Positions 1 through 5,180 of a stretch of DNA of 64,000 nt are shown here, piece after piece. The DNA lies in the sequence record NC_047754.1; one strand, 5' to 3'. Source of the stretch: Escherichia phage phiAPCEc03. The notes below the pieces were generated by a model, which saw nothing but the letters and a program-made list of their open reading frames with translations, did no database searches and had not been told where the DNA came from. How positions within the stretch are numbered: the stretch's first letter is position 1; each line of letters opens with the position of its first letter. A program made the translations under genes and the position numbers.

Positions 1-461
1 CTGGCTTTTCTAAGTTCTTTTTCAGCCTGCTCAAGAGTTTTAAAAGTTCCTATGGTAATTCTATTACCATTTACACGTAGTTTTGCTTCGAACTTTCCCT
101 CCCCGCGTTTATATACTCCCTTAACCCCTGTAGACTCATTCTTCCATCCCGAAGAGTTTTTTCCATTCTCTGCATTTGTTGCTTTACGTAAGTTATTCCA
201 CCTATTGTTGAAGGGGTCTTGATCTTTGTGATCAATGAGAAATTCACCTGGGTCTTCTCCTGTCATGTATAGATACGCTACCCGATGGGCCTTATATAAC
301 CCATTATTACCCATTGATAGGGATATTCCTGAACTATTTCTACTACCTGCTGGTTTACCTTTACGACTCCCTGAATTCCAAGTAAATATACCTGCCTCTG
401 GATCATAGTCATATTTTTTCTTATATTCTTCTAATGATAGAAGAGGTTTATGATTTGCCAT
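1..461 (-). CDS. HNH-AP2 homing endonuclease, partial (start codon at 461, C-terminus runs off window edge)
   Basis: Hand translation of minus strand from ATG at 461 gives MANHKPLLSLEEYKKKYDYDPEAGIFTWNSG...YKAHRVAYLYMTGEDPGEFLIDHKDQDPFNNRWNNLRKATNAENGKN...GVKGVYKRGEGKFEAKLRVNGNRITIGTFKTLEQAEKELRKA with no stop to position 1; HNH motif plus AP2-like C-terminal domain; paralogous to ORFs at 40340, 47672, 60851. Absent from ORF track because it is truncated. Confidence 0.6.
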   Translation of the reverse strand, partial: MANHKPLLSLEEYKKKYDYDPEAGIFTWNSGSRKGKPAGSRNSSGISLSMGNNGLYKAHRVAYLYMTGEDPGEFLIDHKDQDPFNNRWNNLRKATNAENGKNSSGWKNESTGVKGVYKRGEGKFEAKLRVNGNRITIGTFKTLEQAEKELRKA

Positions 462-666
462 TTATCTTGAATCTCCTCCGAGAACTTCTTGAGCCATCAT
501 TCCACTCCCGCTCAAACTCCGCACGTTTCTCTTCAAACTTCCGCTCCCTTTCCGCAATCTCCCGCGATACTTCCGCAATATATTTACGATGGCTGTCGAT
601 AGCCGCAGTCATTCCGAAAATTCCCGCAAGTATCCCGATAATAAAAGCAATTATAATACTAAACAT
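448..666 (-). CDS. small membrane protein (N-terminal transmembrane helix, charged C-terminus)
   Basis: 72 aa ORF; hydrophobic N-terminus FSIIIAFIIGILAGIFGMTAAI followed by K/E/R-rich tail; function unknown. Confidence 0.4.
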   Translation of the reverse strand: MFSIIIAFIIGILAGIFGMTAAIDSHRKYIAEVSREIAERERKFEEKRAEFEREWNDGSRSSRRRFKINGKS

Positions 667-853
667 CTAATTCCCTCTCAATTTGCAGAATACGGGTACT
701 ATCACAACGTTGCAGTTCTACTAATTTTTCTATAGCAAATTGTTGCTGCTTTACCTGGGCCTCTAGAGTTTTTAGGCGAACATACGCGTTATAAGAAACA
801 ATGAAAGTTGCCCAGACTAGTATTACTATTAGTGTAGCTACTACTTCCATCAT
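659..853 (-). CDS. small membrane protein (TM helix plus coiled-coil-like tail)
   Basis: 64 aa ORF; MMEVVATLIVILVWATFIVSY hydrophobic segment; start overlaps stop of upstream small ORF (ATGA-type coupling). Confidence 0.4.
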   Translation of the reverse strand: MMEVVATLIVILVWATFIVSYNAYVRLKTLEAQVKQQQFAIEKLVELQRCDSTRILQIERELDV

Positions 854-957
854 TTACGTTTCTCCAGTAATAAAATTTCAACTCTAGCCAAGTGATTATC
901 TAAAATACATTGTCCGATAATAACAACCCCTAGTAATGCAATAATTACCCATTCCAT
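850..957 (-). CDS. very small membrane protein (35 aa)
   Basis: Hand translation MEWVIIALLGVVIIGQCILDNHLARVEILLLEKRK; overlapping stop/start with neighbours; below ORF-track size cutoff. Confidence 0.3.
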   Translation of the reverse strand: MEWVIIALLGVVIIGQCILDNHLARVEILLLEKRK

Positions 958-1085
958 TAAATCCACCCCGCCATAGCTGCTAACCAAAAACCTACGAAAA
1001 TAAAGAATAGGATAGTTCCGAACCCAAAACTATTTATCCAACTCTCATACACCTCTCCGCGTCTATTCTTTCTTTTGTTTGACAT
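957..1085 (-). CDS. very small membrane protein (42 aa)
   Basis: Hand translation MSNKRKNRRGEVYESWINSFGFGTILFFIFVGFWLAAMAGWI; basic N-terminus then hydrophobic helix; TAATG overlap with next ORF. Confidence 0.3.
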   Translation of the reverse strand: MSNKRKNRRGEVYESWINSFGFGTILFFIFVGFWLAAMAGWI

Positions 1086-1261
1086 ATCTTTCGTGCTCCC
1101 ATAAATGTGATATTTAAAATATTTTATAGTTTGTGTATAACCGACCGTGCTTGTGAACTCCTAGAAGGACTCCTATTTTTCTTACCTAGTGGTTTCTGCC
1201 AATATACCATCCAAGAAATAAAAAATTTAGTTTACTTGGATGTCTTTTTGTTTTATACTAA

Positions 1262-1528
1262 TTACAGGTAATTAGATTGCTCTAGTTTAAATTTACAATC
1301 ACCATATTTAAGGTCAAACTGACTGAGATCCCACCACCCAAATTTAGTACGGAGCTGTACTACTGGAAAGCGATCTCCCTTAATACGAACTTTTTGAACC
1401 TTGAGACCGTAATGTTCTTCTCCCGCACCACCAAAAGATTTTACAAATCCCGTACAAAATGGTTTGGGAGCAGGTGCACAACCAGATAACATAACTACGG
1501 CAACTAGTGCAATTACAAACTTTTTCAT
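1262..1528 (-). CDS. llp: Llp-like lipoprotein (receptor-blocking superinfection-exclusion lipoprotein)
   Basis: 88 aa; signal peptide MKKFVIALVAVVMLSGC with lipobox LSG-C; divergent from the receptor-binding protein gene as in T5 llp/oad; own sigma70-like promoter. Confidence 0.75.
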   Translation of the reverse strand: MKKFVIALVAVVMLSGCAPAPKPFCTGFVKSFGGAGEEHYGLKVQKVRIKGDRFPVVQLRTKFGWWDLSQFDLKYGDCKFKLEQSNYL

Positions 1529-1559
1529 ATTTATCTCTCCATTTCTAATTTATGAATCT

Positions 1560-1588
1560 ATTATAGCAAAATAGAGGGATGAAAGCAA
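1560..1588 (-). promoter_or_regulatory. sigma70-type promoter for llp (-35 TTGCTT, 17 nt spacer, -10 TATAAT)
   Basis: Minus-strand reading: TTGCTT-tcatccctctattttgc-TATAAT then GGAGAG Shine-Dalgarno before the llp ATG. Confidence 0.6.
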
Positions 1589-1613
1589 ATACATTTTTAT
1601 AATAGGAGATTAT

Positions 1614-3371
1614 ATGGGTTTTTTCGCTGGAAAGTATAGCGATGGTAAGACCGTACTATCTTTAAATACTGAATCTGGGGGTGACATTAATCGTCACTAT
1701 AGTCCAAATAATAATAGTATTTTTCATAGTGATATGCCATTTGTCCTAGTTGATGGTACTTACGAGGCTGGGTTAGGTGATGCCGGAAATGGGTTTTTCG
1801 TATGTCAGATGCCTCCTGATATAGTAAATATTAAATCTAATGATCCTGGTAGAGTTATACTAACTGCTATTGAAATTAACGGCACTCACAGAGCTTTTCT
1901 TAATGGTACTCAGAGTAAGGTTGGTCAAACTATAGTTGCCACTCAAGCTGATCCCTTTAGATCTTTTGCTAGTGTTTCTCAAACTAGTGGATTTGCATTT
2001 GGTAATAGTCTAGCATCTGGAACTTATAATTATAATTCATCGATAGGGCACGAAGAATCTATCTCTAGGAGTGGCACAGGGGGTACTACATTACATAGTA
2101 CCTACCATGGGATAGTTAGGCCCGGTGCGGGAGCTCCTGTAGGTGTTACTGTTGCAGAAGCTTTTGCACAATTAGGGTTTCCTACTAACAGTAGCACAGT
2201 ACCTGTAGATGGGAATAACCCGTACTATTGGGATCCTGGATGGATGTCGCCTCTAGGAGCAGCACATAGAGGGCATGATTGGTTTTATGTTTGCAATTCT
2301 AATATACGTGGGTACGGTGGGGTTAGGCAAGGGCTCCCAGGTAATGTAAATACTATGTACCACGACGGCGGGAACAGATTTGTTTGTAGGGGATCTACTA
2401 CTAATCTAGCTAACCAGTCGGGTGACTCTACAATACTACAGGATTGGTATAATATAACTCCTACTAAGGTTATTTGGTATGTTCTTAACTTAAGGTACTC
2501 AAATGGCGGTATGAGTATTTCCGGCAATCCCTTTACTGGTTCTGATATTCTTATATCTCCTTCTAATTTCATAATTAAAGGGGTAAGTCTCCCGAATACT
2601 GGATATAAATTTATAAATCAGAATGCTTTTGGTAACCTAGGTTACCGTCCTGATATGGAGTATATAGGGAATAACGCAGCGTATACTGGGGTTTTTGGGG
2701 ATACCACGGCAAGGTGTGAACTTGTAGGGTCTAGTAATGGAGGATTATGGTCTCCTGTAGACTATGGTGGAGCTAAATCACAGATTAGCATTTATAGGTT
2801 CGGAGTAGGTAAACAGTGGTATGTAAACTCTAACGATAATACTATTGGTAACGAGCATGGAGTTGTTTGGGGACCATCAGCAGTTCCACTGCGACTTTTT
2901 GGTGGAAATGTAGGTAGTTCTTATATGGGAGATGATATTACTCCTAGCTACCCAGGAACGGGTGATAGATACGTTGGTTTATCAACTATTGGGCTAGGTA
3001 TACCAGGCGGAAATGCTACAGTAATTCTTACTACTGAAGTTATATCAGGTAATCTTAATTGTGCGGGTGTTCCAGCTAATACATGGAATAACGGTGTGTT
3101 TCAAGTGCAAGGAAGAAGAGCATATAGCTATAGCGGCGGGGATGCAATATTCCACCAGATTTTAACGCTACCTGTGGGCTATCTAGTACCTTTTCATACT
3201 ACATCTGCTTTTAGATATACACCTAACAATGCTCTAAGTAGAAACAGTTTTATATATACAGTTAAAAATCTAGGAAATGGAAATGTGGAGTTAGGGGTAG
3301 TTATGCACGTGAGTTTGGGTAGTGCAGTTTTCCTACCTAGATTAAGAGTAACAGTTCAACGCCTTACCTAA
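1614..3371 (+). CDS. receptor-binding tail protein (T5 pb5/Oad-like)
   Basis: 585 aa; N-terminus [24 protein letters not shown] and C-terminus RVTVQRLT resemble my recollection of T5 pb5; Gly/Asn-rich; SD AGGAG; adjacent divergent llp. Confidence 0.7.
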
Positions 3372-3381
3372 AGGAGGAAAT

Positions 3382-3864
3382 ATGGCAAATGATGTATTAG
3401 TACCAGATCTTATGTCCCCTGAAGGGATGGATGTGATTGAAGCTTATTTACAGTGCGGCAGCGATGTGCCTTCTGCCGCACGTAGTCTTGGAATGTCCGA
3501 AATTGCTTTCCGAGATATTATGAATCGTAGTGAAGTTAAGAACTACTTAAATGATATTTTTATGGAAAGTGGATTCCGTAACAGGGATCGTTTGTTTGGT
3601 GTTCTAGATGAAGTTATTAAACGTAAACTAGAGGAACTGGAAGAAACTGGCATGGGTTCTGACCAGGATATTATGGATATTCTCTGGAAAGCACACAAGA
3701 TGAAGATGGAAGAGATGAAAATGATGGTAGAGTTAGAAAAAGCTAAAGCTGCCGTTCGAGCTCCTGCTAATCAGACCAATATCCAGAATAACATTATTGC
3801 TGGAGCTGGGGATCAAAACTACATGGACTTAATTACTTCCCTGGCTACTGGAGGTAAGAAATAA
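3382..3864 (+). CDS. putative terminase small subunit
   Basis: 160 aa ORF immediately upstream of and abutting large terminase (stop/start overlap); helix-turn-helix-like N-terminal region; SD AGGAGG. Confidence 0.5.
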
Positions 3865-5180
3865 TGGAAGTATCAAGACCCTACGTTAACACAGTAGATG
3901 TTATTGATTTCGGAATAGACAAACGTTTCTTTCGTTTACCTGTTTCAGGAATACTAGCACAAGAAGGTATTACACCTAATGGTCCTCAAATAGCGATTAT
4001 CAATGCGCTAGAAGACCCTAGACATCGTTTTGTAACGGCGTGTGTATCGCGCCGTGTGGGCAAGTCCTTTATAGCATATACACTTGGATTCCTAAAATTG
4101 CTGGAACCCAATGTGAAGGTACTAGTAGTTGCTCCTAACTACTCACTGGCCAACATCGGATGGTCTCAGATTCGTGGTCTTATTAAGAAGTATGGCCTAC
4201 AAACTGAACGTGAGAACGCTAAAGATAAAGAGATTGAGTTAGCTAATGGTTCTCTGTTTAAACTAGCTTCCGCGGCTCAGGCTGACTCCGCAGTTGGACG
4301 TTCATATGATTTTATCATTTTCGATGAGGCGGCAATTTCCGATGTGGGTGGTGATGCCTTTAGGGTTCAGTTACGTCCTACTCTAGATAAACCTAATTCT
4401 AAAGCTCTATTTATTTCCACCCCTCGTGGAGGTAACTGGTTTAAAGAGTTTTACGCCTATGGATTTGATGATACGTTACCTAACTGGGTGTCTATTCATG
4501 GTACATACCGTGATAACCCTCGTGCTGACCTGAATGACATTGAGGAAGCACGTCGTACAGTTAGTAAAAACTACTTCCGCCAGGAATACGAGGCCGACTT
4601 CTCTGTATTCGAAGGCCAGATCTTTGATACCTTTAATGCTATCGATCATGTTAAAGACCTCAAAGGTATGCGTCACTTCTTTAAAGATGATGAAGCATTC
4701 GAAACATTGCTTGGTATTGACGTTGGTTATCGTGATCCTACAGCAGTTCTTACTATTAAGTACCACTATGATACAGATACCTACTATGTATTAGAAGAGT
4801 ACCAGCAGGCAGAGAAAACTACAGCGCAACATGCTGCGTATATTCAGCACTGTATAGATCGTTATAACGTAGATCGTATCTTCGTTGACTCCGCGGCTGC
4901 CCAGTTCCGTCAGGACTTAGCTTATGAACATGAAATTGCATCAGCTCCAGCTAAAAAATCTGTCCTAGACGGTCTAGCATGCTTGCAAGCGCTATTCCAG
5001 CAAGGCAAGATTATTGTAGATGCTTCATGTTCCTCATTAATCCATGCGTTGCAGAACTATAAATGGGACTTCCAAGAAGGTGAAGAAAAATTATCACGTG
5101 AAAAACCACGTCATGATGCTAACTCTCACCTCTGTGATGCGCTGCGCTATGGAATTTACTCTATTTCCCGTGGTAAATAA
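3864..5180 (+). CDS. terminase large subunit
   Basis: 438 aa, same length as T5 large terminase; ATPase N-terminal region and nuclease C-terminal region; position before portal. Confidence 0.85.
   Translation: MEVSRPYVNTVDVIDFGIDKRFFRLPVSGILAQEGITPNGPQIAIINALEDPRHRFVTACVSRRVGKSFIAYTLGFLKLLEPNVKVLVVAPNYSLANIGWSQIRGLIKKYGLQTERENAKDKEIELANGSLFKLASAAQADSAVGRSYDFIIFDEAAISDVGGDAFRVQLRPTLDKPNSKALFISTPRGGNWFKEFYAYGFDDTLPNWVSIHGTYRDNPRADLNDIEEARRTVSKNYFRQEYEADFSVFEGQIFDTFNAIDHVKDLKGMRHFFKDDEAFETLLGIDVGYRDPTAVLTIKYHYDTDTYYVLEEYQQAEKTTAQHAAYIQHCIDRYNVDRIFVDSAAAQFRQDLAYEHEIASAPAKKSVLDGLACLQALFQQGKIIVDASCSSLIHALQNYKWDFQEGEEKLSREKPRHDANSHLCDALRYGIYSISRGK

Follow-up and report, generated by a model that had tools for sequence, protein, structure and literature searches.

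Four small, overlapping reading frames (o1-o4) next to llp, on the minus strand of the window (the whole 64,000-nt stretch of DNA analysed here), are, judged by their sequences, orthologues of orf1-orf4 of phage T5 (T5.159-T5.162), that is, of already known genes. Our reading, to which we give a probability of about 0.6, is that they form a genuine, translationally coupled set of small inner-membrane accessory proteins that is dispensable and has o1 as its core. These genes are among the most conserved uncharacterised small genes of T5, a classical model phage, and they adjoin the sole known T5 exclusion gene.

Gene organisation and genomic setting

Megablast places the window among the T5-like phages (Tequintavirus). 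The features discussed below are as follows, with orthology assigned from sequence comparison.

1..458, minus strand: 5' part of an HNH homing endonuclease gene, truncated at the window edge (PHROG 99, E 1.4e-50)
448..666, minus strand: o4, 72 aa, orthologue of T5 orf4/T5.162 (PHROG 6447, 'membrane protein', E 4.6e-42)
659..853, minus strand: o3, 64 aa, orthologue of T5 orf3/T5.161 (PHROG 5851, E 2.3e-35)
850..957, minus strand: o2, 35 aa from the ATG, orthologue of T5 orf2/T5.160 (PHROG 6369, E 3.6e-24)
957..1085, minus strand: o1, 42 aa, orthologue of T5 orf1/T5.159 (PHROG 8596, E 4.5e-32)
1086..1261, minus strand: spacer of 176 nt between llp and o1, with no intrinsic terminator, strong sigma-70 promoter or Rfam match
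1262..1528, minus strand: llp, 88 aa, lipobox LSGC (PHROG 1119, E 3.8e-26)
1614..3371, plus strand: pb5 (oad), receptor-binding tail protein of 585 aa, divergent from llp

The four minus-strand ORFs of 42, 35, 64 and 72 aa reported in a preliminary description of this DNA are all present where it placed them, and the PHROG matches span the full length of each ORF, every one to its own family. The stop-start overlaps of the ATGA/TAATG type that it described are found at two of the three junctions, o1/o2 (TAATG, 1-nt overlap) and o2/o3 (ATGA, 4-nt overlap); o3 and o4 instead share an 8-nt overlap, ATGTTTAG. A Shine-Dalgarno-like motif lies 5-10 nt upstream of the ATG of each of the four genes. 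The listed ORF of o2 reaches an upstream TTG, which gives 45 aa.

The co-oriented block is headed by llp, which in this phage encodes a superinfection exclusion (receptor-blocking) lipoprotein of the type of DT57C and DT571/2, and o1 begins 176 nt downstream of it. Because the genes share a strand and no terminator is predicted in the spacer, llp and o1-o4 may constitute one operon. The single promoter-like site of the spacer is weak (9/12), its folding is ordinary (z = -1.2), and there are no Rfam matches in positions 1..1700. From a recombination breakpoint about 45 nt before the start codon of o1 onwards, the window again shares its backbone with T5. At the other end of the cluster, downstream of o4, the ATG of the HNH endonuclease gene lies within the 3' end of o4 (11-nt overlap). 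This gene is missing here in T5 and most relatives, and many relatives align only from position 502. In every full-length genome and contig examined, the cluster adjoins the junction of the right terminal repeat and dmp.

Coding status and conservation

The genes o1-o4 are genuine and under purifying selection. In frame, dN/dS (Nei-Gojobori) is 0.12 for o1, 0.12 for o2, 0.41 for o3 and 0.26 for o4, as against 0.8-2.5 in the two other frames, save for one off-frame of o2 at 0.39. The variable columns of the ORF alignments gather at third codon positions, and the frames are retained between genera at 40-90% protein identity. The opposite proposal, that these are chance ORFs in AT-rich DNA conserved by DNA-level constraints beside the terminal repeat, can point to very short reading frames, two of them often unannotated. 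It is refuted by the comparison of in-frame and off-frame dN/dS, it agrees neither with the third-position variation and the retention of the frames between genera nor with transcription of the region (see below), and we give it virtually no credence.

The reading frames are conserved in related phages, with intact copies of o1 and of o2 in all 22 related loci, of o3 in 21 and of o4 in 20. The overlap layout is common to these loci, a second genus included, barring truncated o3/o4; truncations or internal deletions affect o3 or o4 in L013, L017 and L019. The cluster is conserved across Tequintavirus and Epseptimavirus whatever receptor module (pb5/llp) is carried. Between T5 and the window, Llp is only 31% identical, whereas o1-o4 are 86-93% identical; since this identity has been held while the llp/receptor-binding module was swapped, o1-o4 are not receptor-specific. 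The cluster is also found in phages that lack llp (Eos, L030). Its composition differs between lineages, from 2 to 5 or more small transmembrane ORFs, and o1, present in every Markadamsvirinae cluster examined, is its constant core. The picture drawn in the preliminary description, of real, translationally coupled genes for small single-pass membrane proteins that lie beside llp and in its orientation, is borne out.

The resemblance to T5 orf1-orf4 extends beyond protein identity to equal lengths of o1-o3, to the TAATG, ATGA and 8-nt overlaps, and to a position between llp and the right terminal repeat/dmp on the llp strand. The two phages differ in that o4 has 72 aa in the window and 81 aa in T5, its last residues being replaced and the HNH gene lying on its 3' end, and in that the upstream llp/pb5 module is DT57C-like in the window and of the FhuA type in T5.

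Predicted structure and topology of the four proteins

Each ORF was described earlier as encoding one hydrophobic helix, and each does contain one strongly hydrophobic segment of 19 residues (Kyte-Doolittle mean 2.1-2.6). In all homologues examined, the flanking charges indicate N-in for o1 and N-out/C-in for o2-o4; these topology calls are based solely on the positive-inside rule.

o1 has a basic N-terminus (KRKNRR), a conserved motif RGEVYESW(I/V)NSFG and a C-terminal transmembrane helix with an invariant AAMAGW, and is predicted to be tail-anchored with a cytoplasmic N-terminus. In Eos (P0100), a divergent phage, 88% of o1 aligns at 68% identity, and divergent T5-like contigs from metagenomes retain 59-71%. 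That the transmembrane helix and the juxtamembrane motif are so extremely conserved would fit a binding partner that is itself conserved. In o2, an N-terminal transmembrane helix is followed by a short charged C-terminus (…LARIETLL.EKRK). o3 combines a variable N-terminal transmembrane helix with a conserved C-terminal tail that is helical and closes with ERELDV, and is about 44% identical in Epseptimavirus.

The N-terminal transmembrane helix of o4 carries invariant G11, G15, G18, A21 and A22, so that invariant Gly/Ala positions occur within the membrane helices of both o1 and o4. It is followed by a long charged helix (REIAERERKFEEKRAEFEREW) and then by a variable tail, which in the window is the short form …RFKINGKS. 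An AlphaFold2 model of o4 is a single continuous helix over residues 2-70 (mean pLDDT 71), and a natural 7-residue duplication in the o4 of ESCO40 keeps the helical heptad register.

Mutual paralogy of o2, o3 and o4 was considered and is unsupported (hhalign probabilities 35%, 0.3% and 6%). The sole clear paralogue of o2 is an ORF of 51 aa inserted upstream of it in some relatives (L017, L021 and Bas33, where it is bas33_0190).

Transcription and apparent dispensability

The cluster is transcribed during infection in Bas33, a close relative. At 20 min after infection, the single time point of an RNA-seq data set with 150-nt reads, TPM values were 462/408 for the o3 homologue, 162/137 for the o2 paralogue, 22/13 for o4 and 219/127 for llp, and all were about 0 under blocked second-step DNA transfer (PMC13250531 Dataset S1). 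The mapping of Bas33 genes to their homologues was confirmed, and the value for o4 is low. Counts for o1 and o2 are about 0 and uninformative, because these genes are shorter than the reads; all other Bas33 genes under 150 nt (bas33_0009, 0010 and 0152) are likewise at about 0. The o1 and o2 counts were therefore treated as an artefact of short genes and not as a lack of transcription in Bas33.

In the CRISPRi-ART screen, T5.159-162 scored 'Not Fit' (PMC11879866 supplement), a call that carries little weight in T5, as the portal gene was likewise scored 'Not Fit'. Together with the natural truncation of orf3 or orf4 in some isolates, these scores make the cluster look dispensable.

Possible functions of the cluster

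No function for o1-o4 was found by homology in Pfam, NCBIfam, PADLOC or profile searches: Pfam and NCBIfam gave nothing above threshold, and PADLOC gave no match at E up to 10. A word-indexed search with o4 and a profile search with o1 returned T5-like orthologues only and no domain fusions, and an exhaustive HMM search with the o4 family against 1.84 billion representatives returned 5 proteins, all of the same family.

The likeness to holins, antiholins and spanins proposed in the preliminary description is not supported. As a lysis module, o1-o4 would serve as holin or antiholin, work in the manner of spanins, or regulate when the T5 holin triggers lysis. They are indeed small, with one transmembrane helix and a charged or coiled tail, and their genes overlap as in lysis cassettes, including those of two-component spanins (lambda Rz/Rz1; T5.045/T5.044); in o3 and o4, as in spanins, the segment behind the N-terminal transmembrane helix is helical and resembles a coiled coil. 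A location apart from the holin has a precedent in rI and rIII of T4, regulatory antiholins encoded away from their holin. However, a cassette some 90 kb distant already provides T5 with its lysis genes, namely holin T5.041, endolysin T5.040 and the overlapping i-spanin/o-spanin pair T5.045/T5.044 (T5.044 lipobox ITGC), and the close relative ESCO40 has holin, lysozyme and i-spanin at the cassette site (its spanin annotation covers the i-spanin only). In both phages, holin and endolysin/lysozyme are encoded in the early region, well away from the o1-o4 locus. A lipobox is absent from all four ORFs, so that a lipoprotein partner is missing; their soluble tails have 16-50 residues, as against about 115 in the T5 i-spanin; o3 and o4 hit Rz-like spanin PHROGs only weakly and without significance (E 0.07-0.17); and no holin family was matched in Pfam, NCBIfam or PHROGs. 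The flanking charges are also opposite in sign. In T5.045, R2, K3 and K13 precede the transmembrane helix (N-in), whereas o2-o4 have no basic residue there, o2 and o3 carry an acidic one, and the charge rule makes all three N-out/C-in. This rule is fallible for such proteins: lambda Rz, a genuine i-spanin, would be given the wrong topology by such a crude charge count. With the 'Not Fit' scores also against it, a lysis module is very unlikely, and o1-o4 are probably not the holin, endolysin or spanin machinery of the phage.

A part in late DNA metabolism, that is, in replication at the membrane, in the processing of concatemers or in packaging close to the terminal repeat, would fit the constant position of the cluster at the right terminal repeat/dmp junction, beside the terminase genes. 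Yet the cluster shares its strand with llp, an early gene, and the late genes for structural proteins and terminase are on the other one; its apparent dispensability and the wide differences in partner composition between lineages do not suit such a part, and nucleic-acid-binding features are absent from o1-o4, all of which makes it highly improbable. Somewhat better placed, and still unlikely, is an action on host physiology or anti-defence, in which the small bitopic proteins would bind to and inhibit some machine of the host inner membrane instead of acting on incoming phage DNA; candidates are the FtsH/LapB axis, proteins of the divisome, TonB-ExbBD and an abortive-infection system bound to the membrane. 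The conservation of the o1 helix and juxtamembrane motif, the retention of the cluster whatever the receptor type, and the category of PHROG 6447 ('moron, auxiliary metabolic gene and host takeover') are consistent with such an action. So are sub-threshold matches of o4 homologues to LapA_dom (8/8 members, best E 4.6e-5), ZapG-like and FtsL, and of o3 to DivIC, all of them bitopic proteins of the host in which a coiled coil adjoins the membrane. Like the LapA domain (PF06305), ZapG/YhcB (PF06295) and FtsL/DivIC, o4 has one transmembrane helix directly followed by a basic charged helix. All of these matches, however, fall under the curated cut-offs, as expected from composition (a transmembrane and a charged helix): the best o4 scores are 22.5 bits for LapA_dom PF06305 and 16.4 for ZapG-like PF06295, against gathering thresholds of 28 and 33.5. 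The exhaustive profile search with the o4 family does not link it to these families, no relative of LapA or ZapG being retrieved up to E 0.001, and PADLOC matches are likewise lacking. Homology to LapA_dom, ZapG, FtsL or DivIC was rejected on these grounds, the similarity staying under threshold and being confined to architecture.

For the inner-membrane accessory set that we prefer, the following arrangement can be suggested. o2, o3 and o4 would be anchored by their N-terminal helices, N-terminus out, with helical charged tails in the cytoplasm, and o1 would be tail-anchored with its basic N-terminus on the cytoplasmic side. Translational coupling would supply the four proteins in fixed proportions, probably from the llp transcript, and the proteins may associate within the membrane by way of the helices of o1 and o4, whose Gly/Ala faces are invariant; complex formation is here inferred from gene overlap and small-residue motifs only. 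The outcome would be a dispensable accessory module on the inner membrane of the infected cell, in which o1 is constant and its partners vary by lineage.

The role that we tentatively prefer for this accessory set is protection of the inner membrane of the infected cell, possibly by exclusion of the DNA of secondary or competing phages or by membrane resealing, which would complement the receptor block that Llp exerts at the outer membrane. An exclusion role, the other resemblance named in the preliminary description, is plausible given the position beside llp and the apparent dispensability of the cluster. Virulent phages do possess inner-membrane proteins for superinfection exclusion, such as Imm of T4. 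o1-o4 have no sequence similarity to Imm, Llp or Cor; unlike Llp and Cor they have no lipobox, PHROG 1119 being matched only by the neighbouring llp; and the cluster survives in relatives without llp. Llp alone reportedly explains the known T5 exclusion phenotype, a result attributed to Decker et al. in 1994. A more specific version, which we regard as doubtful, is that all Markadamsvirinae carry, at the junction of receptor gene and terminal repeat, an uncharacterised multi-subunit inner-membrane device built around o1, which would block DNA entry irrespective of the receptor or reseal the injection channel, independently of Llp. Should o1-o4 turn out to be a receptor-independent module for exclusion or membrane takeover, this would matter both for understanding how T5-like phages compete and for the design of therapeutic T5-like phage cocktails.

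Annotation of the cluster

We found no paper that assigns a function to T5.159-162, and papers and preprints on Llp, BF23 and the two-step injection of T5 are silent on these genes. Several GenBank records name the ORFs 'tail fiber protein', 'tail assembly protein' or 'receptor blocking protein', names for which no support was found. Several relatives show no annotated feature beneath matching o1-o4 sequence. The earlier remark that two of the ORFs fall below typical annotation cut-offs agrees with the absence of o1 and/or o2 from several GenBank records (e.g., ESCO40 and Stitch), which is a matter of annotation quality. In T5 itself, T5.159-T5.162 are annotated at NC_005859 110826..111490, each with the remark 'contains single transmembrane domain', and the 1994 llp record X75922 names the four genes orf1-orf4, a long-standing annotation that had gone unrecognised in the preliminary description.

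The gene cluster downstream of llp

Translation of the window yields exactly the four minus-strand ORFs, o1-o4, that the preliminary description had placed between 448 and 1085. The cluster does adjoin llp, the gene for the receptor-blocking lipoprotein Llp, which is on the same strand, 176 nt upstream; the gene for the receptor-binding tail protein pb5 is divergently transcribed relative to llp. The features are as follows.

1262..1528, minus strand: llp (lipobox LSGC; PHROG 1119)
957..1085, minus strand: o1, 42 aa
850..957, minus strand: o2, 35 aa counted from the ATG
659..853, minus strand: o3, 64 aa
448..666, minus strand: o4, 72 aa
1..458, minus strand: HNH homing endonuclease gene, truncated at the window edge (PHROG 99, E 1.4e-50)

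The proposed stop-start linkage holds for o1/o2 (TAATG) and o2/o3 (ATGA) but not for o3 and o4, which overlap by 8 nt (ATGTTTAG). A Shine-Dalgarno-like motif lies 5-10 nt 5' of each ATG, and each product has one hydrophobic helix, as described earlier, visible as a single 19-residue window with a Kyte-Doolittle mean of 2.1-2.6. The start of the HNH endonuclease gene overlaps the 3' end of o4 by 11 nt (448..470 region).

Megablast with window 1..3400 matched 295 phage records. Nearly all of these are T5-like (Tequintavirus and relatives), and the top one has 95% identity across the whole segment. The T5 reference genome has the four genes as T5.159-T5.162 (110826..111490), with the note 'contains single transmembrane domain' on each. 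They are flanked by llp (T5.158) and, beginning 42 nt past T5.162, by the right terminal repeat. The same genes appear as orf1-orf4 in X75922, a GenBank entry from 1994 for the T5 llp region, and o1-o4 match their own PHROGs (8596, 6369, 5851 and 6447, none with an assigned function) over the full length with E 1e-24 to 1e-42. They were thus already known and annotated, as hypothetical genes.

Among ESCO40, JLBYU40 and other matches, several GenBank records name o1 'receptor blocking protein', o2 'tail fiber protein' or o3 'tail assembly protein'. No support for these names was found in this analysis, and they look like propagated annotation errors. Some GenBank records leave out o1 and/or o2 entirely.

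Coding status and transcription

In 22 related loci from 20 distinct genomes, with the ORFs located by tblastn, o1 and o2 are intact throughout, while one locus lacks an intact o3 and two lack an intact o4. Apart from these cases the genes overlap in the same way everywhere, also in another genus, Epseptimavirus (Stitch, atrejo), with o3 identity there down to only ~44%. Pairwise dN/dS (Nei-Gojobori) for the annotated frames comes to 0.12 for o1, 0.12 for o2, 0.41 for o3 and 0.26 for o4, compared with 0.8-2.5 in the other two frames of the same nucleotides (one o2 off-frame, at 0.39, is the exception), and third codon positions hold most of the variable alignment columns. The frames are therefore kept in related phages through conservation at the protein level, rather than by DNA-level constraint beside the terminal repeat.

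RNA of the Tequintavirus Bas33 (HildyBeyeler) was sequenced 20 min after infection in a 2026 study (PMC13250531, Dataset S1); we confirmed the gene-to-ORF correspondence by translation of MZ501074. TPM values (two replicates) are 252 / 162 for pb5 (bas33_0193), 219 / 127 for llp (bas33_0192), about 1 for o1 (bas33_0191), 162 / 137 for a 51-aa o2 paralogue (bas33_0190), about 1 for o2 (bas33_0189), 462 / 408 for o3 (bas33_0188), 22 / 13 for o4 (bas33_0187) and 525 / 444 for the downstream homing endonuclease (bas33_0186); blocking second-step DNA transfer brings all of them down to ~0 (PMC13250531). The locus is thus transcribed at about the level of llp. Near-zero TPM is found in all Bas33 genes under the 150-nt read length (bas33_0009, 0010, 0152, 0189 and 0191; PMC13250531), whatever the level of the neighbouring genes, so the values for o1 and o2 are treated as a counting artefact, one that hides mini-ORFs in datasets of this kind. 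A literature search found no published demonstration of o1-o4 translation. The analysis supports the earlier reading of a small membrane protein operon: o1-o4 are real small genes, conserved and transcribed, and correspond to the known T5 orf1-orf4.

The llp-o1 spacer has no predicted intrinsic terminator and just one, weak promoter-like site; its fold is not unusual and it has no Rfam match. Given the shared strand, the lack of a predicted terminator and the single weak promoter-like site, o1-o4 are plausibly co-transcribed with llp. Several relatives that share this llp type also have a 28-aa ORF present in the spacer (1124..1210, minus strand; MVYWQKPLGKKNRS…); in others (ESCO40 and L002) the ORF is extended or has a frameshift, so it is probably not coding.

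Independence from the receptor module

Between T5 and the window, Llp is only 31% identical, whereas o1-o4 are 86-93% identical. In the spacer alignment the shared backbone begins again ~45 nt before the o1 ATG, which marks the breakpoint of llp/pb5 exchange. The cluster is independent of receptor type and, judging from these alignments, is part of the conserved backbone and not of the receptor-specific module. The llp/pb5 module of the window (1086..1528 in the alignment of relatives) is of the DT57C/DT571-2-like type, and its Llp and the Llp of a 108,418-bp contig (L015) are 98.9% identical. BtuB is the receptor reported for DT57C-type phages.

Protein architecture

The o1 protein has a basic N-terminus (KRKNRR), an invariant motif RGEVY…W.N..G.G and a transmembrane helix, with invariant AAMAGW, that runs to the C-terminus; the prediction is a tail-anchored protein whose N-terminus is cytoplasmic. 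In o2-o4 the helix stands at the very start with no preceding basic residue (o2 and o3 have an acidic one there); after it come basic residues and a charged, helical tail. By the positive-inside rule, o2-o4 are predicted to be N-out/C-in in every homologue examined; the rule is fallible for bitopic proteins, and the same charge count would mis-call the topology of lambda Rz. An AlphaFold2 model of o4 is one helix (residues 2-70, mean pLDDT 71), and its transmembrane part has invariant G11, G15, G18, A21 and A22. The small-residue faces and the translational coupling both point to the idea that o1-o4 may pack together in the membrane. In ESCO40, o4 (locus 3448..3687) has a tandem duplication of seven residues, FDEKRAE, within the charged helix; as this is exactly one heptad, the register is preserved. 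Profile-profile comparisons did not support o2, o3 and o4 as mutual paralogues.

Possible functions

Our tentative reading, to which we give a probability of about 0.3, is that o1-o4 provide receptor-independent protection or exclusion, complementing Llp; the preliminary description, too, had exclusion as one option. The proteins would sit in the inner membrane with cytoplasmic tails, be made stoichiometrically by coupled translation, probably from the llp transcript, and may assemble as a complex around o1 with an accessory role at the inner membrane of the infected cell.

Foremost among the alternatives, though doubtful, is a modulator of a host machine or of anti-defence type. Searches of o1-o4 against Pfam, NCBIfam and PADLOC gave no match above threshold. 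The most consistent sub-threshold match was o4 to LapA_dom (8/8 members; best E 4.6e-5, with 22.5 bits where the cut-off is 28), followed by o4 to ZapG-like and FtsL and o3 to DivIC. The matched proteins are bitopic host proteins that have a juxtamembrane helix; the likeness is taken to be one of architecture and not of homology. With the o4 family, an exhaustive HMM search over 1.84 billion representatives returned five proteins, all orthologues; o4 and o1-profile searches of a 5.8-billion-protein set returned only T5-like proteins (37-81 aa), with no domain fusions. Regulation of lysis, as implied by the earlier holin/antiholin/spanin analogy, ranks lower and is unlikely. T5 has its lysis cassette in the early region (holin T5.041, endolysin T5.040 and an overlapping spanin pair), where ESCO40, a close relative of the window, also has an annotated holin, lysozyme and i-spanin. 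The T5 o-spanin T5.044 has a lipobox (ITGC), which none of o1-o4 has; the 147-aa i-spanin T5.045 has R2, K3 and K13 before its helix, whereas the charge asymmetry of o2-o4 is the opposite; the tails of o1-o4 are far shorter than an i-spanin periplasmic domain. Matches to Rz-like PHROGs were non-significant (E 0.07-0.17). A packaging-related role, likewise ranked after the host-machine or anti-defence modulator, is most improbable.

Dispensability and variation

T5.159-162 scored 'Not Fit' in a genome-wide CRISPRi-ART screen of T5, which is weak evidence because the portal gene did too (PMC11879866 supplement). Some cluster members can be lost in nature: o4 is truncated in one isolate (L013) and internally deleted in another (L019), and o3 is truncated in a third (L017), with o1 and o2 intact in all. 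The 51-aa ORF is present in L017 and L021 (between o1 and o2) and in Bas33 (2499..2654 of the compared locus); it shares MEWVII at the N-terminus and RIETLLEERK at the C-terminus with o2, and is therefore a tandem paralogue of it that carries a helical insertion, retaining TAATG-type 1-nt overlaps on both sides.

Genomes with the HNH insertion (window, ESCO40, SSP1, VEc33) have a short o4 tail, …RFKI(N/D)GKS; in those without it o4 is 81 aa and ends …REFRPEHRFDDPSMR or …RMSESGDKPVDRRSS. Some 15 codons at the 3' end of o4 were apparently replaced by the insertion. The endonuclease gene of Bas33 is a different one; it lies 43 nt downstream of o4, which keeps the tail of the 81-aa form.

At this locus, more distant relatives have a remodelled cluster, arranged as follows.

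Eos (no llp): o1 homologue, then four ORFs of 80, 107, 76 and 183 aa, each with an N-terminal transmembrane helix and coiled coil
L030, metagenomic T5-like contig (no llp): o1 and three small transmembrane ORFs
L031, metagenomic T5-like contig: llp, then o1 and one tail-anchored 38-aa ORF
Klebsiella Sugarlandvirus (no llp): o1 absent; two ORFs with this architecture (74 and 151 aa)

Constant are the locus, the architecture of one transmembrane helix plus helical tail and, within Markadamsvirinae, o1. The longer proteins of two distant Demerecviridae, Eos (4350..4901 of its locus, 183 aa) and Klebsiella phage vB_Kpn_B01 (L028 5054..5509, 151 aa), add to the N-terminal transmembrane helix and coiled coil a Ser/Gly-rich low-complexity tail, which has no counterpart in the window. 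These tails end in a Cys-containing motif (…SSYDCGGSSFSPSCD and …SSYCDSGSSSFDSGCSF, respectively) and look related to each other.
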